From positions 16,010-80,009 of the forward strand of contig CALHGX010000002.1 in assembly GCA_938031185.1 (NCBI GenBank): DNA of 64,000 nucleotides. Direction: 5' to 3'. The DNA comes from an uncultured bacterium. Its GTDB lineage: Bacteria; Verrucomicrobiota; Kiritimatiellia; CAIKKV01; CALHGX01. The position numbers were made by a program, and so were the translations under genes. Position 1 is the first letter of the stretch; each line of letters opens with the position of its first letter. Positions 11,000 through 54,960 of the stretch are shown here, in pieces. The notes beneath the pieces are model-generated. The model made no database searches. It saw only the letters and a list, made by a program, of their open reading frames with translations, and was not told where the DNA came from.

Positions 11000-11064
11000 A
11001 AAGACCTCCGCACCCTGCCTCGCAGAGGGACCATGCAAGCGCCCCCCGTCTTCATCGCCGGACA

Positions 11065-39002: not shown

Positions 39003-40310
39003 CTACAAGAGATCAGCGGCCAACGCCGCCAATGCGCTGCGTTCGCTCTTGACCAGCGTAACGTGGCCATGCACGGCTTCTTTCTTCATGCGTTCCACGG
39101 CATAGGCCAGTCCGTTGCTGCTGGAGTCCAGATACGGGTTGTCAATCTGGTACGGGTCTCCGGTCAGCACCATTTTGGTTCCCTCCCCGGCCCGGCTAAC
39201 GATCGTCTTGATTTCGTGCGGGGTCAGGTTTTGGGCCTCATCCACAATCACGTACTGTCGCGGAATGGACCGTCCGCGAATGTATGTCAATGCCTCCATC
39301 TCCAGCACCTGTTCGCGCTGCAGCCGTTCGATCTTCTCCCGCAGGGAATGGCGATGGTCGCCGTTCGGGCTCTTGAGCATGAGATACGTCAGATTGTCGA
39401 AAATCGGCAACATCCAGTTGGCCAGTTTTTCTTCTTTGTCCCCGGGCAGATACCCAATGTCCCGCCCGAACGGCATGATCGGCCGCGAGACAAGCATGCG
39501 ATCGTAGCGTTTCTGGTTGATGCTCTTCTCGAGCGCCGCGGCCAGCGCCAGCAGCGTCTTGCCGGTCCCGGCCGGCCCCATGAGCGTCACCAGCGCCACG
39601 GAATCGTCCAGCAGCAACTCGAGCGCCATGCGTTGCTCACGGTTGCGCGGCTTGACATGCCAGGCAGAGTCCGATTCCGGCCGCAGCGGTCGGAGCGTGC
39701 CATCGGCGCCCGCCCGAACCAGCACGGTTCGGTGTGCCCCCTCCTCGGACCGGAGCAAAACGAACTCATTCGGAAAAAACATCGCGTCGGACAGCCGAAC
39801 CGACCGATTGGCTTCAAAAGCGTCCATTGTTTCCGGCGGCACAAGCCATTCCCGGAATCCGCTAAAGAGTTCGTCGAAGTTGACCTTTTGTTTCTCGAAA
39901 TCCATCACCTCAATGCCCAAGGCATCGGCCTTGATACGGGCGTGGATGTCCTTCGAAACGAAAATGACGCGGTGCCCCTCCTGCGCAAGCAGGTGGGCCG
40001 CCCCGATAATTCGGTTGTCGGGGACGTCATCGTGCAGGCCCGCCGCTTGAGGCGAACGGTTATGGGTAATCCGCAATTCCCCGCCGTTGTCGAGCGGCAC
40101 CCCTTCGCCCAACCGTCCACGCAGGCGCAGAATATCCAGCCGGCGAATCGCCCAGCGCGCATTGCGGCCGAGTTCGTTGTTCTGGGTCTTGAAGCGGTCC
40201 AGCTCCTCGATCACCGCCATGGGCAGCACCACGATGTTGTCAGCGAACGATTCGATCGCGGAGGGGTCGTGCAGGATGACGTTGGTATCGAGGACAAAAT
40301 ATTTTCTCAT
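39003..40310 (-). CDS. PhoH2-type protein (N-terminal PIN domain fused to a PhoH ATPase)
   Basis: MRKYFVLDTNVILHDP (PIN), Walker A GPAGTGKTLLALAAAL and Walker B VIVDEAQN. The ATG is 12 nt after the upstream stop, with a GGGGGA SD. Confidence 0.9.
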   Translation of the reverse strand: MRKYFVLDTNVILHDPSAIESFADNIVVLPMAVIEELDRFKTQNNELGRNARWAIRRLDILRLRGRLGEGVPLDNGGELRITHNRSPQAAGLHDDVPDNRIIGAAHLLAQEGHRVIFVSKDIHARIKADALGIEVMDFEKQKVNFDELFSGFREWLVPPETMDAFEANRSVRLSDAMFFPNEFVLLRSEEGAHRTVLVRAGADGTLRPLRPESDSAWHVKPRNREQRMALELLLDDSVALVTLMGPAGTGKTLLALAAALEKSINQKRYDRMLVSRPIMPFGRDIGYLPGDKEEKLANWMLPIFDNLTYLMLKSPNGDHRHSLREKIERLQREQVLEMEALTYIRGRSIPRQYVIVDEAQNLTPHEIKTIVSRAGEGTKMVLTGDPYQIDNPYLDSSSNGLAYAVERMKKEAVHGHVTLVKSERSALAALAADLL

Positions 40311-40322
40311 GCGTCCCCCGGC

Positions 40323-42380
40323 TCACCCCGGCATCACGGCGAAGGGCTTTGGTATCTGGCCCGTCACGAAGTAGTAGACGAAACCGACGAGTATGGGAAT
40401 GATTCCGCCAAGCATGTCGCCGGCGATCAGCCCGAACATAAACGGTTTGAGCTTCTGGTAGCCTGCGGCGCCGCCATACTTGGTCACCAGCGTCTTGATG
40501 AGCCACCCAGCGAAGAACGAAGCGGCGAACACATGGGCGAAGTAGGTGCTCCATAGCAGGAAGATGACCGGATGCAGCGGCCATTTCGGAAAGCGCAAAC
40601 GTCCCGCCGTGAACAGCAGGAACAACCCGAGGCCGACCGCAAAGTATAAGCCATATTTCGCGTCAGGAGACGCCATCTTGAATCGGGCCAAACCAGTGGC
40701 CGTTCCGGCCAGTTCAAGCGCATCCTGGGCCGCCAAACGCTGGCGCTGCAGCATGACTTCCTTGAACGGCTCGCGCGCCATCCAGTACGTGGCCCAGCCG
40801 TCCGCCATGTTGGCTCCCCGATTGTATTGGAAATACAGCTGCACCGGCAGGGCGACGGCGAGACCCACGATCACCGCCAACACGCATAGAATGGCCACAC
40901 GGCCGACGCGATTGCCGAACATCTCGTTGAGCTTCAGCGAATTGACCACAAACGGCATGAGCGATTCGCGAGGATCCACCATCAGGATCACGGAAACAAG
41001 CAGCATGATCATCATTGAACGAGGATCGGCCGCCAATGGCCCCAAGAACCCGAGCAGGATGGCGCAAGGGAAAACGAACGGCTGAATGAGAAAGAGCCCC
41101 GTCTCCGCCATGATGCGGCTCATCCCAAGAAAGATCATCACGGTGCCCAAGGAGAACAGCAGCGCCAGTGGCCAGTCCAGGCCCACCAGCACGAGGTTGG
41201 CGACCATGAGCACCAGAGCGACCACAAACGCCCGAGCGCCCCAAACAGCTGCCGGCTCCGGCTCCTCGGCACTCGGCAGGAAAAAGGCGCGGCGAAGGAC
41301 GAGGCTGTAGTAATGCCGGCCAGTGTAGGCAATGACCAGGAACAGCCCAAAATAGGCCCCGAAATTGAGGAACGAAATCACATTGGGGGCCATGTAACCG
41401 GAACCGCCTGTGCTGATGCCGTACTGCAGCAACACCGCCGCAATGTAGGAATAGATCCAGGGGCCGAGGAAAAGCGACACGGACACATCCGTCGCGAGAA
41501 AGTAAGCGAACGCAATAACCGTGAAAAAGAACTTCGGATTGTAGAGCACCGCCACCCATCCCAACTGATCGGGCCAGAGCCGTTCGAAAACCGGCACCAG
41601 CTTGCTGAGCGGCAGAAAGTTGAAGGAGAGCGGCACCTTGACCATCACAGCCGGAAACCACTGGCAGGCATAATTGTTCAGATGAATAGCCAGCACGAAA
41701 GCCGCGCCGATCCAGAACGGCCGGCTGTGCAGCACACGCCCCATCGCGGCTCCCGCGGTCTGCGGCAGCAGCGCGCTCGCGAACTGCGCGATGGGATACG
41801 GCAACTGCTCATGCCGCGCCCACTGGCGGTGCACCACCAGCGAAAGGCCGGTCAGGGCCACCCACACGGACAGCAGTAGCGGCACCCAGAATGCCAGCGT
41901 CCGCGTCCAAGCAAACCAGGGGATCTGCGACAAGCCGATTCGTTTTTGACCCACCCCAAGCCCCTGAATGAACCCGTTGAGCGTCGTCGCCTCCTCCCGG
42001 CTGATGTCCGCCAGCATGCGAGCCGGCACCAGCTCCAGCACCTTCTGCTCCTGCCATCCGGGATCCAACCGGGCGTAGTGGTGCGGCAGAATCAGCGACG
42101 TGGTGAAATAGCGCATCAGCCCGGACCCTGGAATGCAGCAGGCAGCCAGCGTGATACCCATTGCCAGGGCCAGTTCCGAACCCGAGAAATCCCAGCGGCG
42201 GCCCAAGCGCGCCAGCAAAGAATTGACCAGCAGCACGAACAGGATGAGGCCGCCATACACCGCAATCGGCATGTTGTTGCCGACGAGGAAGGTCTGACGC
42301 ATGACGGCATCGTTGAAATACGAAAAGCCGCAAATCAGCCCCACCCCAATCAAGCCCAGCCCTATCGCCCTGCGCGTCAT
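40323..42380 (-). CDS. 685-aa polytopic membrane protein, family not recognised
   Basis: Hydrophobic segments run throughout (LICGFSYFNDAVMRQTFLVGNNMPIAVYGGLILFVLLV...). The ATG is 17 nt after the ABC ATPase stop. Confidence 0.7.
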   Translation of the reverse strand: MTRRAIGLGLIGVGLICGFSYFNDAVMRQTFLVGNNMPIAVYGGLILFVLLVNSLLARLGRRWDFSGSELALAMGITLAACCIPGSGLMRYFTTSLILPHHYARLDPGWQEQKVLELVPARMLADISREEATTLNGFIQGLGVGQKRIGLSQIPWFAWTRTLAFWVPLLLSVWVALTGLSLVVHRQWARHEQLPYPIAQFASALLPQTAGAAMGRVLHSRPFWIGAAFVLAIHLNNYACQWFPAVMVKVPLSFNFLPLSKLVPVFERLWPDQLGWVAVLYNPKFFFTVIAFAYFLATDVSVSLFLGPWIYSYIAAVLLQYGISTGGSGYMAPNVISFLNFGAYFGLFLVIAYTGRHYYSLVLRRAFFLPSAEEPEPAAVWGARAFVVALVLMVANLVLVGLDWPLALLFSLGTVMIFLGMSRIMAETGLFLIQPFVFPCAILLGFLGPLAADPRSMMIMLLVSVILMVDPRESLMPFVVNSLKLNEMFGNRVGRVAILCVLAVIVGLAVALPVQLYFQYNRGANMADGWATYWMAREPFKEVMLQRQRLAAQDALELAGTATGLARFKMASPDAKYGLYFAVGLGLFLLFTAGRLRFPKWPLHPVIFLLWSTYFAHVFAASFFAGWLIKTLVTKYGGAAGYQKLKPFMFGLIAGDMLGGIIPILVGFVYYFVTGQIPKPFAVMPG

Positions 42381-42397
42381 CCCTTACCCCTTTCGCG

Positions 42398-43132
42398 TCA
42401 CTTCACCGTGCCGATCCGGATGTCCACGTCGGCCCGCCGCTGGAGTTTCTCGATCGCACCGTCGCGAATCCAGAGGATCCGATCCGACACGTCGAGCATC
42501 TTGTGATCGTGCGTGGCCGTGATCACCGTCACCCCTCGCTCCTTGCTCAGCCGATGCAGCAGATGAATGATCTCTTCGCCGGTATGCAGGTCGAGATTCC
42601 CGGTCGGTTCGTCGGCCAGAATGATCGCCGGATCGTTGGCAAGCGCCCGCGCGATGGCTACGCGCTGCTGCTGCCCGCCGGAGAGCTCGTCCGGCCGGTG
42701 CGTCAGGCGATGCCCCAAGCCAACAGAGGCAAGCACCTCCCGAGCCCGTTTCAGGGCGTCGTCGTACCGCACGCCGCCGAAAACCAGCGGCAGCGCCACG
42801 TTGTTGACGGCGTCATAGGCGGGGATCAGGTTGAACGTCTGAAATACGTACCCGATGTGGTTGCCGCGAAAATACGCCAGCTGCCGGCTCGTGAGCGCGG
42901 TCAGCCGAACGCCCGCCACGGTCACCTCGCCGGCGGTAGGCCGGTCCAGCGCGCCGATCATGTTGAAGAGCGTGCTCTTGCCCGACCCAGACGGCCCCAT
43001 AATCGAAAGGTACTCGCCCCGGTAAATATCCATGGAGACCTCCCGCAGGGCCTGCACCAACGTCTTGCGGCCCAGCCGGAACTGCTTGCTGAGGTTCCGC
43101 ACCTGGATCAAAACTTCCGGGTCTGTTGCCAT
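42398..43132 (-). CDS. ABC transporter ATP-binding protein, MacB/LolD class (copy 2)
   Basis: Walker [16 protein letters not shown], signature [15 protein letters not shown], Walker [13 protein letters not shown]. Confidence 0.9.
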
Positions 43133-43145
43133 GGACGCTCCACCA

Positions 43146-45134
43146 TCAGAACGGCAGGTGAATCACCGCCTTGCTGAGAAACGTGATTCCGACTCCGATC
43201 GTCGTGACCAACCCCTGCCCGCAGGCAAAACCGGCGGCCACAACGGGAATATACTGCCGCCAGTTCAACCCGACGCGCTTCTGGAAATAGTACCGCCCGA
43301 GCAGCGCGCCGATGAACTGCGGCAGCACGCTATGCGGGAGCGTCTGACCGAGGCCGCGCACGATGCCGTAAACCATAAACACCGGCGCCCCGAGCGACGC
43401 CATACCGCCGATGAGGCCGAGCCCGAACAGCATGCCGGCGCCAAGATAAAGCGCGTTAAACGCCTGTTCAAAAATCGAATATTCCCCGAGTGTCGCCGAG
43501 TACATGATCGAGTTGTTGGCCGCCTGCAGTTCCCACATCTGCTGAGCGAAGGGATAGACCGCCGAGGGCAGTTCCGCGAGCCCCCAGATGAAGTTGGCAA
43601 AGAAGATCGAGCTGAAAATCACGATCGGATACAGGACGAGCTGCGACTTCCAGATGCTGGAGAAGCGCGTCCCGGTCAGCTCGCACTGCCGGTAGAACAC
43701 CGTCATCTGGCCGTAGTTGCCCATCGGGATCGGCAGGAACCAGCAGGCCACGCCTTTGTAGCCGCTAAAAATTAATGCCGCTTCGCGGATCATCGGGATT
43801 TCCACCACCTGGCCGACCATGCCCTCCAACCGCGCGGTCACGTAGCTGATGAGCGGCGTATACACGAACCCCAGGATGACCATCACCGTCATCACGCCCC
43901 GATGCCAGTTGATGAGGAACCCGGACATGACAATATAAATGGTCGTCACCACGAAATAGCACAGCAGGATGGCCCACAGGCGGATGTCGCCCCGGCCCGA
44001 CGGCGGACCGCCGCCCTGCACCGCTGCCGCCAGCGGCGCCTGCTTCTTCCGTTCCCGCAGACTGCGGACGACCTGCACGATGCCCGCGACGGCGATCGCC
44101 AGCGAAATGCCGATCGTGAAGCTGAAATAGAAGTCCACGTTGTTCTTGAACATGGTGGCAATGGTGTCGTCGCCGCGCGACCATGACGTCAGGATTTTGA
44201 AGTGGTACAGAAAGGGATTGGCCACCATGGTCATCACCAGACCGATGAAACTGCCCAGCATTCCAAAGAAGGGGAAGACCATCCCGAAAATAAGATTGCC
44301 CAAATCCCACGAAATGCCGGTGGCCACGGCCGGCAACAGGGCCTGCGTTTTCGTCGTGAAGTCGCTGAAGGGAATCGGAAAGATCATGATCGGCGAGCCG
44401 GTCAGCGCGCCCGTCAGGGTGGGCAGCAGCAGGTAGACGGAACCAAACGCCAGTCCGAGCGCGCCGCCGATCGAGAAAATCCGCCAGCGCCAGTTCTTCT
44501 GCCGCGCCTCGGCATCCTTTTCCTCCACATCCTCGGCCAGCGCGAGCACGCCCTGCGCCCCGATGGGGGCCATAGGGAACGGGAGCTTCTCAATGTCGCT
44601 GGCGATGCGGAACAGGCCGTAGCCCAGCACCACGTTCTTGAGGTTGCCGAAGAAGGTGGAAAACACGATCAAGCCGATGGCCGGCAGCCAGTCACGATGG
44701 AAGAAGGTGCGCCGCACGTAGGAGGGCGAATCGGCGAACGGCGCATACCACGAGGGCAACCACTCGCTGATGCCATAGGCCGTGGCCGCTTCGCTGCGAG
44801 GATAAAACTGCTGCCAGAGCAGCCCCGAAAACGGCATCCCCATCGCCGCGCCGGCCATGAAGAAGAGCACGAATATCTCCGCCTTCTTCAGTTGGCGCTG
44901 CGCGCGGCGCGCCACCTCGATAAAAAGGATCACCGTCACCCATTGCGCCGCGGGGCCGATGCCCTGGCCGGCCAGCAACCCCATGTAGAGCGCACCCGGC
45001 ACCATCAGGACGGCGATGAAGAGCGCGCCGACAAGCGATGCCCAGTTGAAGCCCTCCTCGAAAGTCGAGGGCACCTGCATGATATTGCGGAACTCTTCGA
45101 GCTCCCGATCCGTTTTTCTCGGTCGTGTGTTCAT
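43146..45134 (-). CDS. ~662-aa polytopic membrane protein, family not recognised
   Basis: Hydrophobic throughout (FNWASLVGALFIAVLMVPGALYMGLLAGQGIGPAAQWVTVILFIEV...). The ATG at 45134 overlaps the stop of the giant upstream gene (ATGA). Confidence 0.7.
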   Translation of the reverse strand: MNTRPRKTDRELEEFRNIMQVPSTFEEGFNWASLVGALFIAVLMVPGALYMGLLAGQGIGPAAQWVTVILFIEVARRAQRQLKKAEIFVLFFMAGAAMGMPFSGLLWQQFYPRSEAATAYGISEWLPSWYAPFADSPSYVRRTFFHRDWLPAIGLIVFSTFFGNLKNVVLGYGLFRIASDIEKLPFPMAPIGAQGVLALAEDVEEKDAEARQKNWRWRIFSIGGALGLAFGSVYLLLPTLTGALTGSPIMIFPIPFSDFTTKTQALLPAVATGISWDLGNLIFGMVFPFFGMLGSFIGLVMTMVANPFLYHFKILTSWSRGDDTIATMFKNNVDFYFSFTIGISLAIAVAGIVQVVRSLRERKKQAPLAAAVQGGGPPSGRGDIRLWAILLCYFVVTTIYIVMSGFLINWHRGVMTVMVILGFVYTPLISYVTARLEGMVGQVVEIPMIREAALIFSGYKGVACWFLPIPMGNYGQMTVFYRQCELTGTRFSSIWKSQLVLYPIVIFSSIFFANFIWGLAELPSAVYPFAQQMWELQAANNSIMYSATLGEYSIFEQAFNALYLGAGMLFGLGLIGGMASLGAPVFMVYGIVRGLGQTLPHSVLPQFIGALLGRYYFQKRVGLNWRQYIPVVAAGFACGQGLVTTIGVGITFLSKAVIHLPF

Positions 45135-48100
45135 GACGGCTGCCCCGACATCGCCTCGCCCGCCCGGGCGCCACCCCATTCCGCCAGCGTGCGTTCCCGG
45201 TATATTTCCATCGTTTCGCGCGGCAGCGAACGCCAGATGAGAAACTGGCGCCGCAGGTCATCCAACAGCACCTTGTTCAGCCGCTGCCAGTCCTTCGGCT
45301 GTCCCGATTGCCGCTCGATGCGAATCCCGACTTCGTCAATGCCGGCAATTTCGCTCGGGCGGCTGAACAGACGGAAGGACTGAGTGACGCCCAGATCAAA
45401 CGGCGCCAGCGCCACGTGGGCCTCCAATCCCGCGCCGGCCTCCGGGCGGGCCAGCCGCACGTCCTGGGCGATGAAAAGTCCGAGCCCCGTGTCGCGATGA
45501 TTCTCAAAATGCTCACGAAGGAAGCTGACCACGCCGGTGATGTCGTATTGCGAAACCGTGAAGGGAAACGTGATCTCGAACACGTCGCCTTTCGGCGGCG
45601 GCAGGCGCCAGGATCGCAGCAGCCCGGGATTCGCGCTCCGCGAGGCCTTGATCGCCGGATAGATCGCCGAAACCAGTACGGTGCCCATGACGATCAGAAT
45701 TGTGATGATCGAATTCATGGAGGAATAGTTCATCTCCGGCACAGGCGCCAAACCCATCGCGGCCAACCCGCTCAGCGCTTTCATCACCGCCTGCGCCAGC
45801 AGATAGCCGCCCATGCCGCCAATCACGGAATAAACCATGGCCTCCGCGAAGAAGAGACCGGCCACATGCTGCGGCGCCAGCCCGAGCGCGCTGAACGTGT
45901 ATATTTCCCGTTCCCGATCCGCCACCGAGCCCAGCATGGTGCCGAAGATCACGAGACCGCCGAGGAGAATGGGGAAGAGCAGGTCCTTCGCGCCGCTCGC
46001 CTGCACCAGCGCGTCCAGCACATGGCGATAGACGCCGTCCTCGCGCGTCGCCGCCACGGGAATTTCAAGGGCGCGAGCCAGGTCTTCGCCAATCTGCGTC
46101 GCGTCTCCGTGGTTCGCGGTATAGAAGGTCATCGCGTGAACGCGCGCGCCGAGCTGCTCCGCCGTCCGGTCGGACACCACCAGCACGGAGTCCGCCGGCA
46201 GCACGGTCCAGTTCTCCTGCTGCTCCGCGGCGCCCTTGACCGGCGGAATCCCCAACTGCTGTTGCAGGTTCTGGTTCTCCGTGAAATCCACCGGCAACAC
46301 CTGGCTGGCGTCCATGTCTTTGATGGCCATCAACATCGCGGGATTGAGCAGCCGCCCCACATGCAGCCGCACACCGCGCAGCATCACCTCGTCGCCGGGT
46401 CCGACGCCCACACGCTGCGCCACCGCCGGCGTGACCCAAACGGTTTCATCCAACGAAACACCGTCCACCGGCTGCAGAAGCTCGGCCAAATCGGGGCGGA
46501 ACCGCCGTTCTTCCTCCGCCACACCCAGGAGCCCCCGCATGGCCGCCGGGCGACTGCCGTCCGGTTGGGACAGCAGCAACCCTTCGCCCTGCTGCGTCGT
46601 GGGCGAAACCCAGCGGCGGACGCAGAGCGTTCCCTGCCCGCGCCATCGCCCCGAGATGATCAACGGCAACTCGGCCGGCAACGCGCTCCAGTTCACCTGG
46701 CGCACCTGGACGCCCGTGTAACCAGGCGACGGCCGGACAAACTGCCGCACCACACCCAGCCGCTTGTCGAACGACGCAAAGCACAAGATGGTAAATGTGA
46801 GCAGGATGATGGTGGTCGCCGTCAGCGCCGTGCGCAGCGGCCGCCGCCGCATCGTGGAAATGCCCATGCTCATGGCGGCCAGAATCGTGCTCATCCGGGA
46901 CACATCGGCCGCATGCACCGTCGAAGTCAGCCCCTGAATCACCTTCAATTCCACCTCGAACTTCTGCATGATGATGGCAATCACCAGCCCTGAAAGCACC
47001 ACTACCGCGAACCCCAAAAAGATGATGACTGGCGTCTTGGATATGGCGAACGCCGGATGAGTGAAGAAGAGTATCAGGAACGTGGCCAGGAAAATGCCCG
47101 CGAACCAGGCAATCTGCCGATACACGTTGGTTGAACCCACCAGCAGCCGCTCAGCCGCGAAGGCGAACGGAATGCACAGCGCCAGCAACACCAACACCGC
47201 CCGCACCAAGTCGTCCAGCGTAGCGCGCACACTGTCATAGACGGGCTTTTCGCCCATCAGCGCAAACGCCGCCAGCGCCTGCGCCCGCTCAGCGGGCGCC
47301 CCGGCGGCATCGCCAATCATGTCCTCGTCTCGCCCGTGCAGCTCTTCCAAGGAGGAATTGAGAATGCCCCGCTCCCGAAGGATATCCATTCGACTCTCAT
47401 TCAACCGCCACAGATCCGCCGCGCTGCGCCGGGTCACCGCCGGAACCGTCCAATAGTCCGTCAGCGGGAACCCGACCCCCTCGGGCGCAAACGCATCGCC
47501 GCCCCGAAGCGTATCCTCCGGGCCGTTGACCAAGCCGACGGCCGAGTTGACGCCAAAGAGCTTGACGGACGTCACGCGTTCATCCGCAAACCAAGCCACC
47601 ACGCCATCCATCGTCGCATAGAAAGCCTTGGAATCCGGCAGCACCGCGTTCACCGGCGCGTCCAGCACTTGCGCGGTGCCCTGCCGGAGCAGCGGCGGAA
47701 GGATGATGGCGCCACCCCGGCACTGATGCACAGCCAGCCGTTCATACACCTTTCCGGCAGAGGCATTCGCCGAAGCGTAAGCCACCCGCCCCCGCTCGTC
47801 AAAAGCGGCCGCAAAGCCGTTGACACGCCAGTGATCGGGATCCGGCGGAACCGGTCCATACCCGTACGAACCGGCGCCGTCACACACAATTACCGGACAG
47901 ACATCAAAGGCCCTAATCTTCTGCTCCTGATGGCCCGCGCCGGGCATTGCGTTGTGTAATTGAATTTGAACCACCGCGCCCGCCATGGGCAGGTTGGCCA
48001 AGGTGCTGCCCCGGGTCCGACCCATGACCATCGGACCCTCCACGCGATAATCCTTCGTGAAAAGCCGGGACACGTATTCCCTGTCGCGCTGGATCGAGCT

Positions 48101-49945
48101 GGGCTGGGAAAGCCCCTCTTGGTCTGCCACCGCGCCGATCAGTCGCGCCATTTCGTGCATTTGCGCCTCCAGACGCGTTAGGTCCAGCCGATCCAGGGTG
48201 TCGTCCGGCGTGCCTTCTCTCCGCAGGGGTTCCTGTGCCGTTCCTAACACCAGATTGTAGAGGCCGAGCCGTCCGGCAATCTCGCCGCTATGCGTTAAAT
48301 GCGGCGCGCCGCGCAGCACGTCCTGCGGAATCAAGGTGCCGTCTGCCGTGGCCGTTTCAAATCCCCCCAGCTTGACCCCGCCCTTCTCCAATTCAGCCGC
48401 CGCCGCCATGAAAGACGCCTGAATGCGCCCATAAAGACCGGGGCGATCCTTGTCGGACCGGATCGGCGAGTGGCCTCCGATCAGCAGGCCCCACCGCGGC
48501 GAGGCATCGCCCAGCAACAGGGAGATGTGCAGCTTGATCTGCGCATCCCCTAGCACCGCCCGCACTTTTTCATCCGACGCCAGCGCGATGGCTTCGAAAT
48601 CGAGCTCCTCCCGCCGCCGCTCCAATGCCGCTTTGACTTCGCGCAGCACGTCGCCCATTTCCGGTGCATCCGCCCTCAACAAGGCGTCTTGCCCGCCGGC
48701 GAATGCACGCGCCGCCCGCCCCAAGGCCCGCCGTAAATCGTTCCATCTGGCTTTGCGCTCCTCCATCTCCCGGATGCGTTGCCGCAGGATGTCTTGATCC
48801 GTTGCCGAATCAGCTGCCGCCAAGGCCCGCCGCAAATCGTAGAGCCGGGCCATGGCGTCATAGGTGCGCACCAGAGCGCGCTCCTGCAGCCGACTGATCA
48901 GCTCCCGGCGAACCGCCACGTCCCGCGCCAGCGGTTCGGAACGCGCCGTGGCCTCCAGCATGGCGGAAAGAAAATCTTTCTCCCGCGCCAGCGACTCGCG
49001 TTGCTTCGCCGGATCCAAATCCAGTGCCCGGTAAAACTCGGCCGCCCCGGCATGCGAGCGGGCCTGTCCATCCAGAAACGCCAGCAGCACATGCCGTCGC
49101 GGCGGGTGCCGCTTGAAATGCTCCGCCATCTGCAACAACGCCGCCACATTGGCGGCCCCGCGCGCGCCGGGCGATAATTCAGGCGCCTCCCCGTAACTAT
49201 CCAGCGGCACGGCCACGACCACCAGTTCCTCCTTCTCCATCTGGAAGACCGGCCCAGTGCCTCGGACAAGTCCAAACACGTTGCGACACGGCGCGCGTTC
49301 CCATCGGGCGGCGCTGCGAATCGTTGCCGTCGCGCCGGCCGGCAGATCAGCGCGCGGGCCGTTGTATAAATATCGGGGCAGATTGGCCGGCGCCATGGTG
49401 TAGTGACTGTACGCGCCATCGCATTCGCCTTCGCGCACGAAAACCACGGCCGCTGCGCCCAGGCGAAACGCCTCCATCCAGCCCCGGCTATTGTTGTAAT
49501 CAAGCACTACAATGGCGTTCGCTGGCAATCCCGCGCCGAAATTTGCGGGAGATCCGGCGCCGGCGTGAACCACCGGCCCCGTCAGTCCTTCGGGCGGCGT
49601 CACCGGCGGCACGACGCCGTTGGGTCGCATAAGCACTAGCTCGCGCGTCACCGCCGGTCCGGTGGCATTCGAAATCGTGATGTCGCAGGCCAGTGTGCGA
49701 AGCCGTGCGCCGACGAAATCCTGGACAAAAACCTCGTCGACTCCAATCTGCTTCAGACGGCTCTCAACGTAGTCGGCCGCGCGCCGTCCAGCTTCCGTTC
49801 CAGCCAGTCGGTGCGGATCGCTCGTCAACGCGAGACTGTCTTCGCGCAGGGTCGCCACGTCGGCCGCCGCCAGCCGCGCGCCGATCGCCGCGGCCGCCAG
49901 CGCCGGCCGCCATGCCCCGCCCCATCTGTTTTTCCGCCCCGTCAT
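45131..49945 (-). CDS. ~1,604-aa fusion: degenerate PA/M28-like ectodomain + long helical region + TM bundle + FtsX/MacB-type permease + C-terminal domain
   Basis: The N-terminal anchor is followed by M28-like LAGTEAGRRAADYVESRL. A PA-like AIVVLDYNNSRGWMEAFRLGAAAVVFV follows. The FtsX module runs from RRRPLRTALTATTIILL (~46.85 kb) to ILIVMGTVLVSAIYPAIKASR (~45.65 kb). About 170 further aa have no recognised family. Start taken at ATG 49945. Confidence 0.75.
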   Translation of the reverse strand: MTGRKNRWGGAWRPALAAAAIGARLAAADVATLREDSLALTSDPHRLAGTEAGRRAADYVESRLKQIGVDEVFVQDFVGARLRTLACDITISNATGPAVTRELVLMRPNGVVPPVTPPEGLTGPVVHAGAGSPANFGAGLPANAIVVLDYNNSRGWMEAFRLGAAAVVFVREGECDGAYSHYTMAPANLPRYLYNGPRADLPAGATATIRSAARWERAPCRNVFGLVRGTGPVFQMEKEELVVVAVPLDSYGEAPELSPGARGAANVAALLQMAEHFKRHPPRRHVLLAFLDGQARSHAGAAEFYRALDLDPAKQRESLAREKDFLSAMLEATARSEPLARDVAVRRELISRLQERALVRTYDAMARLYDLRRALAAADSATDQDILRQRIREMEERKARWNDLRRALGRAARAFAGGQDALLRADAPEMGDVLREVKAALERRREELDFEAIALASDEKVRAVLGDAQIKLHISLLLGDASPRWGLLIGGHSPIRSDKDRPGLYGRIQASFMAAAAELEKGGVKLGGFETATADGTLIPQDVLRGAPHLTHSGEIAGRLGLYNLVLGTAQEPLRREGTPDDTLDRLDLTRLEAQMHEMARLIGAVADQEGLSQPSSIQRDREYVSRLFTKDYRVEGPMVMGRTRGSTLANLPMAGAVVQIQLHNAMPGAGHQEQKIRAFDVCPVIVCDGAGSYGYGPVPPDPDHWRVNGFAAAFDERGRVAYASANASAGKVYERLAVHQCRGGAIILPPLLRQGTAQVLDAPVNAVLPDSKAFYATMDGVVAWFADERVTSVKLFGVNSAVGLVNGPEDTLRGGDAFAPEGVGFPLTDYWTVPAVTRRSAADLWRLNESRMDILRERGILNSSLEELHGRDEDMIGDAAGAPAERAQALAAFALMGEKPVYDSVRATLDDLVRAVLVLLALCIPFAFAAERLLVGSTNVYRQIAWFAGIFLATFLILFFTHPAFAISKTPVIIFLGFAVVVLSGLVIAIIMQKFEVELKVIQGLTSTVHAADVSRMSTILAAMSMGISTMRRRPLRTALTATTIILLTFTILCFASFDKRLGVVRQFVRPSPGYTGVQVRQVNWSALPAELPLIISGRWRGQGTLCVRRWVSPTTQQGEGLLLSQPDGSRPAAMRGLLGVAEEERRFRPDLAELLQPVDGVSLDETVWVTPAVAQRVGVGPGDEVMLRGVRLHVGRLLNPAMLMAIKDMDASQVLPVDFTENQNLQQQLGIPPVKGAAEQQENWTVLPADSVLVVSDRTAEQLGARVHAMTFYTANHGDATQIGEDLARALEIPVAATREDGVYRHVLDALVQASGAKDLLFPILLGGLVIFGTMLGSVADREREIYTFSALGLAPQHVAGLFFAEAMVYSVIGGMGGYLLAQAVMKALSGLAAMGLAPVPEMNYSSMNSIITILIVMGTVLVSAIYPAIKASRSANPGLLRSWRLPPPKGDVFEITFPFTVSQYDITGVVSFLREHFENHRDTGLGLFIAQDVRLARPEAGAGLEAHVALAPFDLGVTQSFRLFSRPSEIAGIDEVGIRIERQSGQPKDWQRLNKVLLDDLRRQFLIWRSLPRETMEIYRERTLAEWGGARAGEAMSGQPS

Positions 49946-49958
49946 CTTCGCTCGCCTT

Positions 49959-50741
49959 TCACGCCGTGACGCCGCCGATGGCGCCGACCTCGATATGCAC
50001 CTCATCCCGACGCGCAACACGTTCGATGCGCCCGTCGCGAATCCACATCAAACGGTCGCAAATATCCAGCATGCGGTGATCGTGAGTGGCGCATATGATC
50101 GTCACGCCCCGCTTGCTGTTCAATTCGCGCAGAATCTCCAGTATTTCGCGGCCCGTGTGCAAATCAAGATTGGCCGTCGGTTCGTCACAGAGCAGGATGC
50201 TGGGCTGGTTCGCCATGGCCCTGGCGATGGCCACGCGCTGCTGTTGTCCCCCCGACATCTCGATCGGCCGGTGGTGCCAGCGATCCTTCAAGCCCACGAT
50301 TTCCAGCAGGTCCATGCCCCGCCGCCGCGCCTCATCGGGCTCGACACCGGCAAAGGCCATCGGCGTCGTCACGTTCTCCAGCGCTGTCTGGTACTGAATG
50401 AGGTTGTACGTCTGGAAGATGTAGCCGATCTTGCGGCAGCGCAGAAAAGCGATTTCCACCGCCGTCAACTGCGCCACGTCCACCTCGTCTATGAAGACCC
50501 GCCCGCTGCTCGGACTGTCGAGCCCGCCGATCATGTTGAAATAGGTGCTCTTGCCTGACCCCGATGGGCCCATCACCGAAATGAACTCGCCGGTATAGAT
50601 TTCGGAATCCACGCCCCGCAGCGCTTCCGTGACGACGTTCTTCCTCACGTACTGCTTCTTCAGCGCCAGCGTTCGTATAATCACCCGCCGCCCGGCCCTG
50701 GCGGTCTCTGCCGCCGCCGGCTCTATTTGCTGCGCGTTCAT
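49959..50741 (-). CDS. ABC transporter ATP-binding protein, MacB/LolD class (copy 1)
   Basis: Walker [16 protein letters not shown], signature [15 protein letters not shown], Walker B ILLCDEPTANLD. ATG at 50741. Confidence 0.9.
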   Translation of the reverse strand: MNAQQIEPAAAETARAGRRVIIRTLALKKQYVRKNVVTEALRGVDSEIYTGEFISVMGPSGSGKSTYFNMIGGLDSPSSGRVFIDEVDVAQLTAVEIAFLRCRKIGYIFQTYNLIQYQTALENVTTPMAFAGVEPDEARRRGMDLLEIVGLKDRWHHRPIEMSGGQQQRVAIARAMANQPSILLCDEPTANLDLHTGREILEILRELNSKRGVTIICATHDHRMLDICDRLMWIRDGRIERVARRDEVHIEVGAIGGVTA

Positions 50742-50766
50742 GAGGCTTTGCACATCGGCTCCAAGG

Positions 50767-52245
50767 CTACTCGATCCGCATGGCCTCCATCGGTGCCAAT
50801 CGGGCCGCTTTCCAGGAAGGATACAGCGAAGCCAGCGCCGCCAGGCCAACACCCACCACCACGGAGGCCGCCACGGCTAGGGCCAGCGCGGCCCACGGCG
50901 TGGCGACCAGCGCCGGCCAGCCCAGGCTCGACCACATGCGCCCGACCGCAATCACCGCGCCGACCGCGCCACCGATGAAGCCGCCCACCACCCCCAGCAT
51001 GCAGGCCTCCAACACAAACACCAGCATGATGAATCCGTCCAGCGCTCCAAGGCACTTCAGCGTGGCAATTTCCCGAAAACGCTCCGTGACGGACATCAAC
51101 ATCGCGTTGGCAATGCCGACCACGCAGACGACCAGCGACACCAGCACCAACCACCCCATTCGTTCGCCCACCCCCATGAAACCGCCGCCCATTCCGGCGC
51201 TCATCACCCAAATTCGTTCGAGCTGCCGCTCCCGTCTCTTGTGCTCCGCCAGGCCAACAATGTCCGCTGCCGTGAGGTTGGCGCCGGGCAACTTCAGTTC
51301 GCGCAAGAGGCCCGCATACCAATCCGCAGAAGCGGCATCGCCCAACATTCTCCATAACCGTTCCGAACTGACCTGGGCCGGAAGCATGTTGAGCCGCCGC
51401 GCCACAGCCCGCCGCATCTCGGCCACGCTGAAACTCTCTTCGATCATGCGGGTCGCGACGCTACGGCGAGCTTGCTCCGCAACGACTTTCGCCGTGGCCG
51501 GATCCATCCGGAAACCTGCCGCCACGATGGCGCGGACGAATTCGCCGTTGTTTTCGCCCAATCGTTCAATCACCGCTTGGTCGCCCCGGGCCGCCGCTAC
51601 AGCAGCCACCGCCCGGCTGCGTCCCTCGCATACTCGCAAAGCCCATTGCTTCGTCTGCTGCCAATCTCGGACAAAAGCCTGTTCCTCTTCCTCCTTCAGC
51701 GGCCAGCGCAGCGACCGCAACGCATCCCGTTCCCGCTGATAACGCGCCTGCTCCTCCGCGGTTTGCAGGCGGTCAAACAACTCCGTTCCGGCCGCCGTGT
51801 GCGCCAGGCGCCGCTGCCGCGCGTAGTCGAGACCCGCCACAAAATCAAGCCAGCGCACAGCGATCAACGCCTGCTCATGAAAACGCCTCATTTCATCCGC
51901 TGTGAGCCCCCCCTGCGCCTGAATTTCCTCCCACATCGGATCGCCGGGCTGGCTCGCGCCCAGATCCCGCAGCGTCTGCTCCACCGTGCCTGCCATCGCC
52001 AGCCGTGAGGCCCAAACCGCCGCCTGGCGAAGCTCTGCGATGTCACGGGCCGCGCGCCGGGCCAGCGCGCCCTTGATCAGCCCCTCGCCCACCACATTCA
52101 TCATGAAGGCGATGGCCACGGCCACGACCACGACGGTGACAAGGGATCGAAACAGGCGGTAGCGGATGCCGTGCAGCATCAGCTCAAAGGTGCGCGCCAA
52201 CCCCAATTTCGGCTGATCCCGAATGTCAATCGGCCGTGTTGTCAT
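50767..52245 (-). CDS. FtsX/MacB-type ABC permease with an atypical Ala/Arg/Glu-rich extracytoplasmic domain
   Basis: TM1 is RSLVTVVVVAVAIAFMMNVV. About 330 aa of helix-biased sequence follow. The FtsX core is ERFREIATLKCLGALDGFIMLVFVLEA...YPSWKAARLAPMEAMR. ATG at 52245. Confidence 0.8.
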   Translation of the reverse strand: MTTRPIDIRDQPKLGLARTFELMLHGIRYRLFRSLVTVVVVAVAIAFMMNVVGEGLIKGALARRAARDIAELRQAAVWASRLAMAGTVEQTLRDLGASQPGDPMWEEIQAQGGLTADEMRRFHEQALIAVRWLDFVAGLDYARQRRLAHTAAGTELFDRLQTAEEQARYQRERDALRSLRWPLKEEEEQAFVRDWQQTKQWALRVCEGRSRAVAAVAAARGDQAVIERLGENNGEFVRAIVAAGFRMDPATAKVVAEQARRSVATRMIEESFSVAEMRRAVARRLNMLPAQVSSERLWRMLGDAASADWYAGLLRELKLPGANLTAADIVGLAEHKRRERQLERIWVMSAGMGGGFMGVGERMGWLVLVSLVVCVVGIANAMLMSVTERFREIATLKCLGALDGFIMLVFVLEACMLGVVGGFIGGAVGAVIAVGRMWSSLGWPALVATPWAALALAVAASVVVGVGLAALASLYPSWKAARLAPMEAMRIE

Positions 52246-52636
52246 ATGCCACTGCCACAATGCCCCGCTGCACCAGCGAACGAAGGTAGGAAGATACCGA
52301 CGCCCGCGCCTCGTGAAAAGTCAATTTGTGTCGTTCGGCAAAAGTTTCGATCATCTCCTCCACCCGCCGCCCATCGCACAAGCCCCACACCTCGGCGCCC
52401 AGCCGGTCCAGCGTAAACGGCTTGGCTTGTTTCGGTCGGATGATCCATCGCAAGGCGCCGGTCATCCACGGCAACGGCTGGGTTCGAACCGTCACGCGAA
52501 CCGTCCCGTCGGCCCGTGTTTCGGCCGACGCCGCGGCGTTCCGAATCGCCTTCGCCTCCAACATGCGCCGCCAGGATCCGTCTGGAACGCCTTCCACCTC
52601 CTGCCGTGGCCGCTTGCGCCCTTTTCTCACGCTCAA
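52226..52636 (-). CDS. PqqD-family (RiPP-recognition-element-like) protein
   Basis: FTLDRLGAEVWGLCDGRRVEEMIETFAERHKLTFHEARASVSSYLRSLVQRGIV matches the PqqD pattern. Start uncertain: TTG 52636 (overlaps the upstream TGA), GTG 52630 or ATG 52564. Confidence 0.7.
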   Translation of the reverse strand: MSVRKGRKRPRQEVEGVPDGSWRRMLEAKAIRNAAASAETRADGTVRVTVRTQPLPWMTGALRWIIRPKQAKPFTLDRLGAEVWGLCDGRRVEEMIETFAERHKLTFHEARASVSSYLRSLVQRGIVAVAYDNTAD

Positions 52637-53520
52637 AGACCTCTATGAGCCCGCAGCGGAAAGTCGCCGCAGCAGGACAAACGCCCTCCCGCCAAATCGG
52701 CGGCGCGCGGCGCGGCGTGGCGCTCGACCGATATGCAATAAAGCCGCCCGTCCCGCGGACACATCCAAGCGGCCGCCCGATACACCTCGCGCCGTCCGCG
52801 CAAGCGCCCCAGCCCCCTTACGGGACGATCGCCCTCCACCCATTCCACGGAATGACCCGCCGATGCGAAAACATCCCGGCGGCGAATGGAAACATCCGCC
52901 GGTTTCTGCAGCGCCAGCCAATCCCTCACCGTTCCTTTCAGCCATTCCGGAACCAGTCCCAGCCTCACGAAAGTCTCCCTTTGTCGCGGCGGCTTTCCCT
53001 TGCAAAACGTGATGTGCGTTGAAGCAGGCTGTACGCGGCACTCCGCGGGGCCTTCCCCGCCGGATACCAGCCAGTCCATGCCAAACGCCCGCCAGCGGCG
53101 CAAGTCCTCCCCCCATGGCGGCTCCGGTTGCATGCCTTCCAGGATGGCCCTCTGCAACGCCACATCCGGATCCCCCGGCCATATGAAGACGGCTTCCACC
53201 AAACACGCCTCCCGTTCGAAATACGCGCCAAGCCGGGATATCCATCGGCCGCCTTGCTTTCCCCGCAAACCGCGCCAGACACCTCTTTTCTCCGGCTGGG
53301 GGTCCGTGAGCCCCCCGGCCGTGGTCAGGCGCGCTTGATAGTCGGACAACATGCGTTCGAAGTCCGGGCGCCCCGGCACCTGCCGCCAGTTGAACTCGAA
53401 CCGATACTGATACCGGTCCGCAAAAACGCAGCGTCCCGCCGCCGGATCTCGAGAGAGCTGCAGCATTTCCCAATCCGCCGGCAGCTCCATCCGGAAATGA
53501 CGCCATACCCATAATCTCAT
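52633..53520 (-). CDS. Hypothetical protein, first gene of the operon
   Basis: The open frame runs 52633..53664, but that start is TTG. ATG candidates are 53571, 53520 (MRLWVWRHFRMELPADWEML...) and 53490. No family recognised. Confidence 0.5.
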   Translation of the reverse strand: MRLWVWRHFRMELPADWEMLQLSRDPAAGRCVFADRYQYRFEFNWRQVPGRPDFERMLSDYQARLTTAGGLTDPQPEKRGVWRGLRGKQGGRWISRLGAYFEREACLVEAVFIWPGDPDVALQRAILEGMQPEPPWGEDLRRWRAFGMDWLVSGGEGPAECRVQPASTHITFCKGKPPRQRETFVRLGLVPEWLKGTVRDWLALQKPADVSIRRRDVFASAGHSVEWVEGDRPVRGLGRLRGRREVYRAAAWMCPRDGRLYCISVERHAAPRAADLAGGRLSCCGDFPLRAHRGL

Positions 53521-53730
53521 GTCCACACCATGCCACCACAAAAACAGCAGCGAAGTTTCAGCAACTCCCATGCCAGACAAAGCCGACCGCGAATGGGCTC
53601 TTGGATTCCAAGGGAGAAAAGCAGGTTGGCCCTGTTTCGATTTTCTGAAGCCGCCCTGCGCCAATGACTATCGTGCACAGTATTCCGCGATTTGTGCAGG
53701 ACAGTATACACAATGCCCGGTTTTTTCGAA

Positions 53731-54438
53731 TCAACCCGTCGAGCTTTTCGAGCGGGTGTCCGAAGGCGAAAGCGCTTGGACCGGACAAACCGCCGCGCAT
53801 TCCATGCACTGGATGCAATCCCGTTCCAGGACGGTGCCGGTTTTTTTCCATGACACGATGGGAAGCCCCATGGGGCATACACGCTCACAAACCTTGCACT
53901 CCTTGCATTTCGCCCCGTCGAATTGAAGCGGATGTCGGAGCAGACCTACGATGTTTTGCATCGTGCCGCCTGGACAGAAGAAACACCATGCGCGTGGCCG
54001 CAAGAAAAAGCCGAGTATCACGCCCACGGCTGTGGTCACCAGGCACATGCCCCAGAAAACCCGGCCCCAATGCCGCCAATCAGCCGGATTCTGGAGTATT
54101 CGATAGAGCATGAACCCCATCAGAATGATCAACAGCGGCCACCGAAAAGCACGCTGTCTAAGAAACAAGGGGGTTCGCCCCATTCTGCTAATGGGCGCAA
54201 TAACACGATCAAAAAAGGCGCCGCGCGGGCACAGATTGCCGCATACATACCGTCCCCGGAAAACGGCCCCTATCAGCCCCATCAGCATAACCACCGGCAC
54301 GGCAAAACCTAGAATCGGATAACGCCATCCCAAGCCGATGACGATCGGAACGACAGGAACAAGTATCCACTGCACCTGTCTTCGCCGGCGAACACTAGCC
54401 TGCCACTCATTGTCTCGCTTCCTGATGTTTCCGTTCAT
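53731..54438 (-). CDS. Membrane-bound 4Fe-4S-binding protein (NapH/MauN/NosR-like)
   Basis: TM segments with CGNLCPRG and CFFCPGG motifs. The C-terminus has two ferredoxin motifs, CKECKVCERVCP and CIQCMECAAVCP. Confidence 0.8.
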   Translation of the reverse strand: MNGNIRKRDNEWQASVRRRRQVQWILVPVVPIVIGLGWRYPILGFAVPVVMLMGLIGAVFRGRYVCGNLCPRGAFFDRVIAPISRMGRTPLFLRQRAFRWPLLIILMGFMLYRILQNPADWRHWGRVFWGMCLVTTAVGVILGFFLRPRAWCFFCPGGTMQNIVGLLRHPLQFDGAKCKECKVCERVCPMGLPIVSWKKTGTVLERDCIQCMECAAVCPVQALSPSDTRSKSSTG

Positions 54439-54960
54439 AAACAAAGAATAACCCGTAAAGCGCTTCCTTTTCTATCATGATTGAGCGCGCATGGCCCGGC
54501 GAGAATGCCCGGCTTCCCCTGCGGCCCCTCGTCACTTCGCGCCTTTTTCCATTCCTTCACGTCCAATCGCGGCCGGTCGCGCAGCGCCATTCGGCGAGCG
54601 GCCCAATGCGTCCGAAGAAACGAAGACGCGCCTTCACGTCCCCCATGTTGCACAGCCAGGCGGCCATGCGCCTTTCACATCTTTTTGTCGCCATCTCTCG
54701 CCTGTTCATTCCAACGCCAAGCGGCAGCCGTTGCTCGCTTCAGCCGTCGAACGGATTCAATGGCATTCGCGATGCAGCCACAGCGCAATGTATCAAGCCC
54801 CCTCTTTCTTCAACCGGTTCTTCACGAAACATGGCTTGAAGAAAAGAAAGAATACGTCGTCGAGCAACTGAAGGATGGAGCCCCGCACCCCGGCGGGCCA
54901 AGAAAGATGGGGCTCGCCGTCCGATCTGCCAAGACCCGGAGCAAAGCGCGTGGGCACGGC

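Follow-up and report, generated by a model that had tools for sequence, protein, structure and literature searches.

This study concerns a cluster of eight genes, here named g1 to g8, in a 64,000-nt window from an uncultured bacterium of the Kiritimatiellia (the window being the whole stretch of DNA analysed: positions 16,010 to 80,009 of contig CALHGX010000002.1, assembly GCA_938031185.1). All coordinates are positions in the window, and all eight genes lie on the minus strand. Between 39003 and 53664 this strand carries a run of open reading frames (ORFs) with zero internal stops. An initial annotation described the run as a ten-gene operon that could not be matched to any described system. 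The annotation itself lists just nine genes; all nine of these minus-strand ORFs exist, each without an internal stop, and the unit conserved in other genomes consists of eight (g1–g8, 40323–53520).

The first two genes form a pair. The product of g1 (52633–53520; 295 amino acids, aa) is predicted to be a cytoplasmic protein built of tandem alpha/beta sandwiches similar to PsbP, Mog1, DcrB and Eag (DUF1795) proteins, and is the partner of the PqqD-family protein encoded by g2 (52226–52636; 136 aa), a winged-helix protein resembling the peptide-binding RiPP recognition elements (RREs; RiPPs are ribosomally synthesized and post-translationally modified peptides). These are followed by (i) g3 (50767–52245), a 492-aa FtsX-type permease, (ii) g4 (49959–50741), a 260-aa ATP-binding cassette (ABC) ATPase of the MacB/LolD/FtsE type, (iii) g5 (45131–49945), a 1604-aa giant with a predicted signal peptide, periplasmic ectodomain, seven transmembrane segments (TMs) and cytoplasmic C-terminal domain, (iv) g6 (43146–45134), a 662-aa polytopic membrane protein for which modelling points to the fold of the oligopeptide transporter (OPT) family and Yellow Stripe 1 (YS1), and which is the most conserved membrane component, (v) g7 (42398–43132), a second, 244-aa ATPase paralog of the same MacB/LolD/FtsE type, and (vi) g8 (40323–42380), a 685-aa polytopic membrane protein with DUF6785 and DUF6784 domains, whose position in the cluster varies.

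The genes are tightly packed. After homolog-guided adjustment of start codons, successive junctions measure -4, -20, 25, 13, -4, 13, 17, 12 and 86 nt; the negative values are a 4-nt overlap of g1 and g2 (TTGA, 52633–52636), a 20-nt overlap of g2 and g3 (52226–52245), and a 4-nt overlap of g5 and g6 (ATGA, 45131–45134). The initial annotation had already reported all three overlaps, along with gaps of 12–25 nt elsewhere, and these are present as described. Its start for the first gene, 53571, has been revised: comparison with homologs places the start of g1 at 53520 (MRLWVW...). From the junctions we infer a single transcript with stoichiometric co-production of the proteins, as was originally suggested; a scan for promoters and terminators returned counts at shuffle level and was uninformative.

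Conservation of the cluster across genomes

At least 587 matching loci were found when each GTDB species was scanned through one representative genome. The best 80 of these were fetched with 10-kb flanks and compared with the window proteins by tblastn. Carriers among the loci examined belong to the Kiritimatiellia, Lentisphaeria, Verrucomicrobiota, Planctomycetota, Fibrobacterota, Omnitrophota and Armatimonadota, taxon labels that derive from metagenome-assembled genomes (MAGs); Verrucomicrobia bacterium LW23 (locus L065) is one of them. The order g1-g2-g3-g4-g5-g6-g7 recurs wherever the contig or the fetched span suffices. Of 49 well-flanked loci, 36 contain the full set of seven, and the other 13 are mostly truncated, by a contig end or by the 10-kb fetch limit. 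In 29 of the 49, g8 also lies within the locus, where it can precede g1, separate g2 from g3, or follow g7. The most regular placement is that of g6, which sits between g5 and g7 in 73/82 loci (the exceptions being mostly contigs that end just past g6); g7 comes next after g6 almost without exception, the median gap between them being 30 nt. Short junctions are conserved too: the median gap from g1 to g2 is -4 nt (36 loci), and the medians of the other gaps are 10–44 nt. Two metagenomic contigs share the neighbourhood seen in the window; beyond the cluster, the flanks of the loci are ordinary and variable.

Median cross-phylum identity is highest for the ATPases (g4 77%, g7 71%) and g6 (66%), and declines through g5 (48%), g8 (45%) and g2 and g3 (both 41%) to g1 (36%). 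This gradient indicates an old divergence with strong constraint on the ATPases and g6; the exceptional constraint on g6 fits a protein buried in a complex. All-vs-all clustering of the flanking ORFs in the 80 loci revealed no ninth conserved family, be it an adaptor, outer-membrane factor, hydrolase or regulator, and the original remark that the operon lacks an adaptor and an outer-membrane factor thus extends to all 80. A tblastn search of g6 against plasmids gave zero matches. In two cases a pair of g5-g6-g7 copies was seen on different contigs of one MAG (loci L010 and L032 in Phycisphaeraceae ARS65; L066 and L079 in Phycisphaerae SM23_33), which may reflect duplication of the system in some genomes, or mixed bins.

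Two genes downstream of g8 in the window do not belong to the conserved unit. A PIN-PhoH2 gene of RNA helicase/nuclease type (39003–40310, minus strand) starts 12 nt past g8 and is probably co-transcribed with it in the window genome; its product scores 293 bits against the NF053827 model (cut-off 680). A profile search identified an M20 dipeptidase gene further downstream. Neither was found in any of the 49 well-flanked loci (0/49 for each), and PhoH2, which had been listed as the final member of the operon, is rejected as a ninth subunit because it never co-occurs with the others. Directly upstream of the cluster, at 53731–54444 (minus strand), is a gene whose predicted product, a 4Fe-4S dicluster protein anchored in the membrane (~4 TMs), has Fer4_5 as well as ferredoxin motifs; the ~210 nt between this gene and g1 presumably bear a promoter. 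Its adjacency to the cluster is not kept in other genomes.

The cluster is thus real, tightly packed and conserved in hundreds of uncultured bacteria of the Planctomycetota-Verrucomicrobiota-Chlamydiota (PVC) group and relatives. A literature search found no published description of the cluster, of its combination of parts, or of DUF6785/6784, and the cluster appears to be previously undescribed.

Predicted folds of the cluster proteins

Type VII ABC systems form a small, mechanistically unusual set—MacB, LolCDE, FtsEX, BceAB and HrtBA—in which work is done outside the cytoplasmic membrane. The cluster possesses the defining features of this superfamily: permeases that match PF02687, ATPases of the MacB/LolD/FtsE type with intact motifs and, by topology prediction only, an extracytoplasmic domain between TM1 and TM2 (~310 aa in g3, ~260 aa in g5). 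PF02687 was called in both permeases, as the initial annotation had anticipated (g3, E = 1.3e-14; g5, E = 9.6e-11, with the FtsX domain at residues 1325–1436), and the two FtsX domains are 33% identical. Hydropathy places the TMs of g3 at residues 40–58, 371–389, 411–429 and 458–476 of a 497-aa ORF; the domain between TM1 and TM2–4 is rich in Ala, Arg and Glu, is predicted to be helical, and matches no family. A family profile of g3 aligns with the Spr0694-type permease, MacB, LolF, YtrF and LolC/E over TM2–4 only.

The two ATPases, g4 and g7, match PF00005 (E = 3e-31 and 2e-34, respectively), carry canonical Walker A, signature, Walker B and H-loop motifs, and share 54% identity; by sequence, they are intact paralogs. 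Their best NCBIfam models are LolD (top for both), MacB, FtsE and DevA, in agreement with the LolD/MacB type first assigned to them. All of these scores nonetheless fall below the equivalog cut-offs: LolD gives 214.7 bits for g4 and 231.5 bits for g7 (cut-off 307.75), and FtsE gives 197 and 212 bits (cut-off 264.85). The permeases fall further short, with 21–28.5 bits for the FtsX equivalog models (cut-offs 225–255) and 42.5 bits for lolCE (cut-off 362.45). The thresholds of the Lol, MacB, FtsEX, Dev and Bce models are thus not reached, in line with the original statement that the combination is none of the known Lol, Mac, Dev or Bce systems.

The giant, g5, has full-length homologs of ~50% identity in the Kiritimatiellia, Verrucomicrobiota, Planctomycetota/Phycisphaerae and Armatimonadota—the groups that also supply the top 120 relatives of g6—and additionally in the Lentisphaerae, Sumerlaeia and Brocadiia. 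Hydropathy suggests a layout of a periplasmic ectodomain (residues ~30–905), three TMs, FtsX TM1, a MacB_PCD-like periplasmic domain of ~260 aa, TM2–4, and a C-terminus of 165 aa. The ectodomain is predicted to be periplasmic, and the N-terminus resembles a signal peptide in 48 of 63 homologs. Pfam searches of 30 homologs detected FtsX in all 30, M28 (PF04389) in 14, MacB_PCD in five and Nicastrin in three. Near the N-terminus (residues ~24–350; 48896–49876, minus strand) lies a region predicted to be a nicastrin-like, PA plus M28 aminopeptidase-like domain: the g5 family profile matches the aminopeptidase 2ek8 (E = 2.6e-10), YwaD (1.2e-6) and nicastrin (2.2e-5). Further matches in the Protein Data Bank (PDB) profiles, to MacB, LolC/E/F and YtrF, fall in the permease part. 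Downstream of this domain come a stretch that is coiled-coil-like (by composition only) and ~400 residues without a recognised fold.

Active M28 peptidases have a two-zinc ligand set (His, Asp, Glu, Asp/Glu, His) and a catalytic Glu. Whether zinc could be bound was assessed at three of these motif positions across the 63 g5 homologs. The zinc-ligand His column reads N in 29, P in 17 and H in five, and is not His in 58/63; the bridging-Asp position is occupied by Arg262 in 62/63; and Gln/Ala stands in place of the Glu-Glu pair. The pseudo-active-site pocket, meanwhile, is conserved among the homologs (residues D249, R262, D292, Q294 and H298). Since the ligand columns are replaced and an Arg/Asp/Gln/His pocket is retained, the domain is expected to bind its ligand without cleaving it. 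The g5 N-terminal domain is, as judged from these alignments, a pseudo-peptidase with a selected binding pocket, which bears out the pseudo-peptidase/FtsX fusion originally proposed for the ~1604-aa protein. In having a PA-inserted M28 fold the ectodomain resembles nicastrin, the transferrin receptor and GCPII; like the first two it also lacks metal ligands, and would thus be a receptor rather than an enzyme. It differs from this group in being bacterial and fused to an ABC permease, with no presenilin-type partner recognised, and the similarity is modest (E = 2e-5). A gamma-secretase analogue was considered and rejected, because the cluster has no presenilin-like protein: Pfam profile searches found no match to the presenilin/SPP family among its products.

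The membrane part of g5 (residues ~913–1436; 45638–47209, minus strand) is a predicted seven-TM "LolE_TM" module, composed of a 3-TM bundle and a MacB-type 4-TM unit with its periplasmic domain. Residues 914–1483 match the PADLOC model PDLC01991 ("CARF_m8--CARF_LolE_TM") with E = 5.7e-56 over profile positions 74–598 of 810. Three homologs behaved like the window g5, and positions ~600–810 of the model never aligned in any of the four. The sequence comparison suggests that g5 shares the CARF_m8 membrane module and presumably lacks the CARF part. It differs from the CARF_m8 proteins (PDLC01991, PDLC01990) also in its own C-terminal domain and M28-like ectodomain, and in having no CRISPR or defence context. 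The same seven-TM family is catalogued both as "CARF_LolE_TM" (PDLC01991) and as "CARF_Beta-galactosidase_LolE_TM" (PDLC01990), with varied ecto- and cytoplasmic domains and in other lineages. The C-terminal domain of g5 (residues ~1440–1604; 45134–45628, minus strand) is predicted to be cytoplasmic and is highly conserved, with dense invariant columns; it has no recognised fold, no Pfam match and, when searched alone, no PADLOC match.

More than 2000 relatives of g6 were found, the top 120 of them at 67–77% identity; the N-terminal tail of g6 (residues 1–35) is conserved. The window g6 gives 7 bits against PF03169, the OPT family (E = 2.7; cut-off 25.8), while most of its homologs carry a precomputed PF03169 match, marked weak where its strength is shown. 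Sequence and profile searches of the PDB yielded no match for g6, and no sequence-level match to YS1 was found. An AlphaFold2 (AF2) model of g6, which is of low confidence (predicted local distance difference test score, pLDDT, 58), matches barley YS1 in Foldseek (7wst, E = 5e-8; 7wsr, E = 2e-7) with template modelling (TM) scores of 0.58–0.63 and a probability of 1.0; the next-best fold has a TM score of 0.12. This model indicates that g6 has the OPT/Yellow-Stripe fold (PF03169, TC 2.A.67), which lends support to an early guess of OPT for the ~662-aa protein. OPT proteins described elsewhere are, to our knowledge, all proton symporters that act alone, whereas g6 is locked between the FtsX giant and an ABC ATPase, and is ~66% identical across phyla. 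YS1 is a homodimeric, proton-coupled, elevator-type OPT symporter (PMC9691689). It works as a dimer, and the cluster has two OPT-like proteins.

The second of these putative OPT-like proteins, g8, has 14 hydropathy segments and matches PF20581 (E = 7.5e-75, 252.8 bits; cut-off 25) and PF20580 (E = 6.2e-20, 71.7 bits; cut-off 26.4), identifying DUF6785 and DUF6784. The family is large, with 2954 representative clusters at E <= 1e-3; sequence and profile searches of the PDB found no match for g8. With a diverse g8 profile, hhalign aligns g8 to g6 over 420 collinear columns that include a (K/H)E-x-L-P-(F/Y)-P motif (probability 35%, E = 3.9e-4), whereas with narrow profiles the match is non-significant (E = 0.03). 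The alignment suggests that g8 is a remote member of the OPT superfamily.

Several further observations concern the DUF6785 family. Stand-alone DUF6785/DUF6784 genes occur near GH42-like, GH123-like, rhamnosidase or TldD/PmbA genes (loci L085–L089), and a tandem DUF6785 pair (L088) is present in a genome whose cluster (L076) has no g8; there are hints here that the family is a general nutrient carrier. A number of 800–1000-aa variants, P0315, P0318, P0341 and P0394 among them, bear an insert of 130–330 aa past residue ~112–150. Pfam returns coiled-coil-type noise only for this insert, which recalls the helical periplasmic parts of g3 and g5.

For g1, no match was found in Pfam, NCBIfam or the PDB; together with g6 it is an exception to the profile searches, which otherwise upheld most of the domain calls made at the outset. 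A g1 profile search did identify five natural fusions of g1 to PqqD. One of these, P0309, gave an AF2 model with pLDDT 86.6 and a predicted TM score (pTM) of 0.81. In Foldseek, its g1 part matches PsbP (E = 5e-5 to 5e-4) and, at ~5e-3, Mog1, DcrB, EagT6 and SciW; no enzyme fold is present in the fusion model. On this model g1 is composed of two PsbP/Mog1/DcrB/Eag(DUF1795)-like sandwiches and is non-enzymatic. While built of such sandwiches, g1 differs from the known proteins in having no sequence similarity to any family, in its tandem arrangement, in being coupled or fused to an RRE, and in its conserved Cys and His residues. The latter, near-invariant in alignments A4 and A5 of g1 homologs, comprise a GRC motif, H223, WxCPxDxRLY and a C-terminal CC; they may constitute a metal site. 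Eag chaperones keep the transmembrane segments of type VI secretion system effectors in the cytoplasm.

The PqqD-like assignment of g2 holds (PF05402, E = 8.1e-11), with the GeoRSP, lasso and SCM PqqD models matching only far below their cut-offs. In the P0309 model, the PqqD part superposes on the lasso-peptide RRE TbiB1 with its leader peptide (5v1u, TM score 0.76). Thus g2 resembles the RREs PqqD and TbiB1 in its PqqD-family winged helix and in this modelled superposition, and differs from them in that its partner is a predicted non-enzymatic tandem PsbP-like protein, in the lack of a precursor and a maturation enzyme, and in its place in a transporter operon. The pair was also considered as the split B1/B2 of a lasso-peptide system; this was rejected, since a transglutaminase-like fold is missing from g1 and a cyclase from the cluster. 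Of the components of a RiPP cluster, the RRE/PqqD domain (g2) is present, and a precursor gene and an RRE-dependent modifying enzyme are absent: no conserved precursor-like small ORF was found in 82 loci, shadow ORFs only.

Comparison with known ABC systems

Within the type VII superfamily, the closest parallels are partial. With FtsEX-EnvC, a complex that controls amidases, the cluster shares an FtsX-type 4-TM permease and an FtsE/LolD-like ATPase, the absence of a substrate channel, adaptor or outer-membrane factor and, as a putative output element in the cluster, a periplasmic coiled-coil (here from composition only) combined with a dead metallopeptidase domain. It differs in that its dead domain is of the PA/M28 type and shares one polypeptide with the permease, from which three additional TMs separate it, and in having two permeases, two ATPases, two OPT-like partners and the RRE/PsbP-like pair. 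LolCDE and MacAB-TolC have the same type of nucleotide-binding domain; LolCDE also has a heterodimer of FtsX permeases, and some of the giants possess a periplasmic domain like the MacB_PCD of MacAB-TolC. Unlike these systems, the cluster lacks a MacA-like adaptor, TolC and LolA, has two ATPase paralogs rather than one, has in g3 an extracytoplasmic domain that is helical and without a family, and misses their equivalog cut-offs. From BceAB it differs in its giant with seven TMs and one FtsX domain (versus a 10-TM permease), and in that no kinase or regulator is conserved near the cluster (versus a linked two-component system). Taken together, the cluster fails to qualify as MacAB-TolC, LolCDE, FtsEX, BceAB, a RiPP cluster, an active M28 peptidase, gamma-secretase or CARF_m8.

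A proposed complex and its rivals

How the eight proteins might work together can be sketched from their composition. Several components are duplicated—two FtsX proteins, two OPT-like proteins and two ATPases that are nearer to each other than to anything else—and a putative chaperone pair, g1-g2, is fused or coupled. Given these duplications, a single pseudo-symmetric complex is the most economical model. We tentatively favour, at a little short of an even chance, a reading in which g1–g8 make up one asymmetric type VII ABC mechanotransducer complex with OPT-fold conduits that handles a peptide-like client. The FtsX permeases g3 and g5 would form a heterodimer in the membrane, the ATPases g4 and g7 the cytoplasmic motor, and g6, with or without g8, a membrane conduit beside the motor. 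The g1-g2 pair would dock at the cytoplasmic face as a peptide- or segment-binding adaptor.

Type VII ABC systems are established to work by mechanotransmission, with periplasmic domains being moved by cytoplasmic ATP binding and hydrolysis (reviewed in PMC5985334), as in FtsEX-EnvC (PMC7668044). By the same token, ATP binding and hydrolysis in the proposed complex could act through the TM1/TM2 stalks, as in MacB, LolCDE and FtsEX, to set the periplasmic parts in motion: the MacB_PCD-like domain, the 310-aa helical domain and the ~875-aa ectodomain. Such motions might open, close or reposition the pseudo-peptidase pocket of g5, which would then correspond, in cis, to the dead LytM domain in EnvC. 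The peptide theme that runs through the parts (OPT fold, aminopeptidase-like pocket, RRE, and Eag-like chaperone fold) leads us to propose a peptide-like client, which would be captured in an ATP-gated manner and passed between periplasm and OPT-fold conduit. As to direction, export of a client presented in the cytoplasm is slightly favoured over import. The composition, conservation, folds, predicted topology and lost catalytic residues come from the analysis itself, whereas assembly, subunit pairing, client class and direction belong to the model.

Several points weigh against this single-complex model. The g6 model on which the OPT fold depends has low confidence, and the homology of g6 and g8, at 35% probability, is suggestive only. 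The gene g8 is missing from the fetched span in ~40% of loci, its position changes, and distant DUF6785 homologs stand alone beside glycosidase or TldD genes; g8 may thus be a looser partner. In a few loci g1 and g2 are non-adjacent, and a few likewise have no adjacent g3. Relatives of the seven-TM module of g5 carry beta-galactosidase-like or CARF domains (the latter by PADLOC model name), and the module may serve as a transducer for general purposes, with no particular link to peptides. The cluster holds no client gene, and the word "peptide" derives solely from family themes. Finally, the strict adjacency of g6 and g7 could mean that the ATPase g7 serves g6.

This last point is central to one rival explanation, in which the cluster consists of two distinct modules: a MacB-type exporter (g3-g4 with g5, hetero- or homodimeric) and an ATP-driven OPT-fold transporter, which would be without precedent, with g7 energising g6 and possibly g8. 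The regular succession and short gap of g6 and g7, the position of g4 directly after g3, and a conservation of g6 on a par with that of the ATPases all speak for it. Yet g4 and g7 are close paralogs of the MacB/LolD type, which fits the coupling helices of FtsX better than an OPT fold, no g6-g7 fusion exists among 120 g6 homologs, and OPT/YS1 proteins are proton-coupled secondary carriers (PMC9691689); we regard this explanation as distinctly unlikely. An FtsEX-like signalling device, where an ATP-gated dead-peptidase ectodomain activates or recruits an unlinked periplasmic hydrolase for cell-wall or envelope remodelling and the OPT-fold proteins recycle the peptides set free, is unlikely as well. 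It draws on the parallel between FtsX plus coiled-coil plus dead metallopeptidase domain and FtsEX-EnvC (PMC7668044), on FtsE being among the best ATPase models, on the missing adaptor and outer-membrane factor, and on the conserved pseudo-active-site pocket. It is at odds with FtsX and FtsE equivalog scores far under the cut-offs, with zero linked hydrolase genes in the 80 loci, and with a dead domain that is M28-like and not LytM/M23, and leaves the cytoplasmic RRE/PsbP-like pair and the need for two ATPases unexplained.

An extractor of the Lol or Hrt/Dev kind, which would free the inner membrane of a lipid-anchored or embedded molecule such as a lipoprotein, a glycolipid or a lipopeptide, would suit the diderm nature of every carrier lineage, the pairing of two different FtsX permeases (which recalls LolC/LolE), the top rank of LolD for both ATPases, and the permease matches to LolC/E, LolF and DevC. 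It is nevertheless improbable: scores stay well short of every Lol and Dev equivalog cut-off, the periplasmic domains are unlike the Sabre/Porter of LolC/E (save for a weak MacB_PCD in 5/30 giants), no LolA-like or DevB-like partner is linked, and the OPT-fold, RRE and pseudo-peptidase parts go unexplained. Very improbable is a RiPP or bacteriocin export-immunity cluster, or an anti-phage module related to the CARF_m8 membrane effectors. A PqqD/RRE protein is indeed present, the PADLOC CARF_m8 LolE_TM models match the giant strongly, and peptide export or resistance is common among MacB-type ABC modules. Against this, the cluster offers no precursor ORF and no modifying enzyme, the partner of its RRE being PsbP-like without an enzyme fold, so that the original view of the operon as no known RiPP system is sustained. 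PADLOC assigned no defence system, reporting only the LolE_TM module and generic ATPase noise, with no match for g1, g2, g6 or g8 and none for the CARF part of the model; the very high cross-phylum conservation is unlike that of RiPP or defence loci, and the flanks are ordinary and variable. That unrelated transport genes were fortuitously juxtaposed in one genome, the outcome that the initial annotation had named as fatal to its own proposal, has next to no chance: the heterogeneity of the parts is the only point in its favour, and it is refuted by a gene order shared by 80 of 80 loci examined across several phyla, with conserved short junctions.

A bolder reading is that of a categorically new envelope translocon, a hybrid in which the type VII ABC mechanotransducer physically drives or gates an elevator-type heterodimer of the OPT-fold proteins g6 and g8, clients being received by the nicastrin-like pseudo-peptidase in the periplasm and by an RRE/Eag-like chaperone in the cytoplasm. 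In PVC-group bacteria, such an OPT machine would use ATP to carry peptides or segments of proteins through the inner membrane. We consider this reading doubtful.

Two other features of the window are of note. A 2427-aa giant is encoded at 55996–63279 (minus strand); it is predicted to be secreted, contains InlB B-repeat-like (Flg_new_2), LamG (Laminin_G_3) and bacterial TSP3 repeats, and is of the surface-protein type of the PVC group. It is followed by a 324-aa protein without a family (54961–55935). At 8639–11167 (minus strand), an 842-aa ORF has a central spermine/spermidine synthase domain (PF01564, E = 4e-12), and is far longer than ordinary spermidine synthases.

The work presented here describes what would be a new type VII architecture, with two permeases, two ATPases and a built-in nicastrin-like receptor domain. 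Further features without precedent are the putatively obligate OPT-fold partners, and a predicted cytoplasmic RRE adaptor outside a RiPP pathway. Folds are proposed for families hitherto labelled "hypothetical" or DUF: g1, g6 and, suggestively only, DUF6785/6784. The cluster is found in at least 587 loci and is under very strong constraint in the poorly studied Kiritimatiellia, Lentisphaeria, Phycisphaerae and Verrucomicrobiota, bacteria that are abundant in sediments, guts and bioreactors. If its parts do form one complex, the cluster would provide a tractable test of mechanotransmission coupled to an elevator-type carrier.

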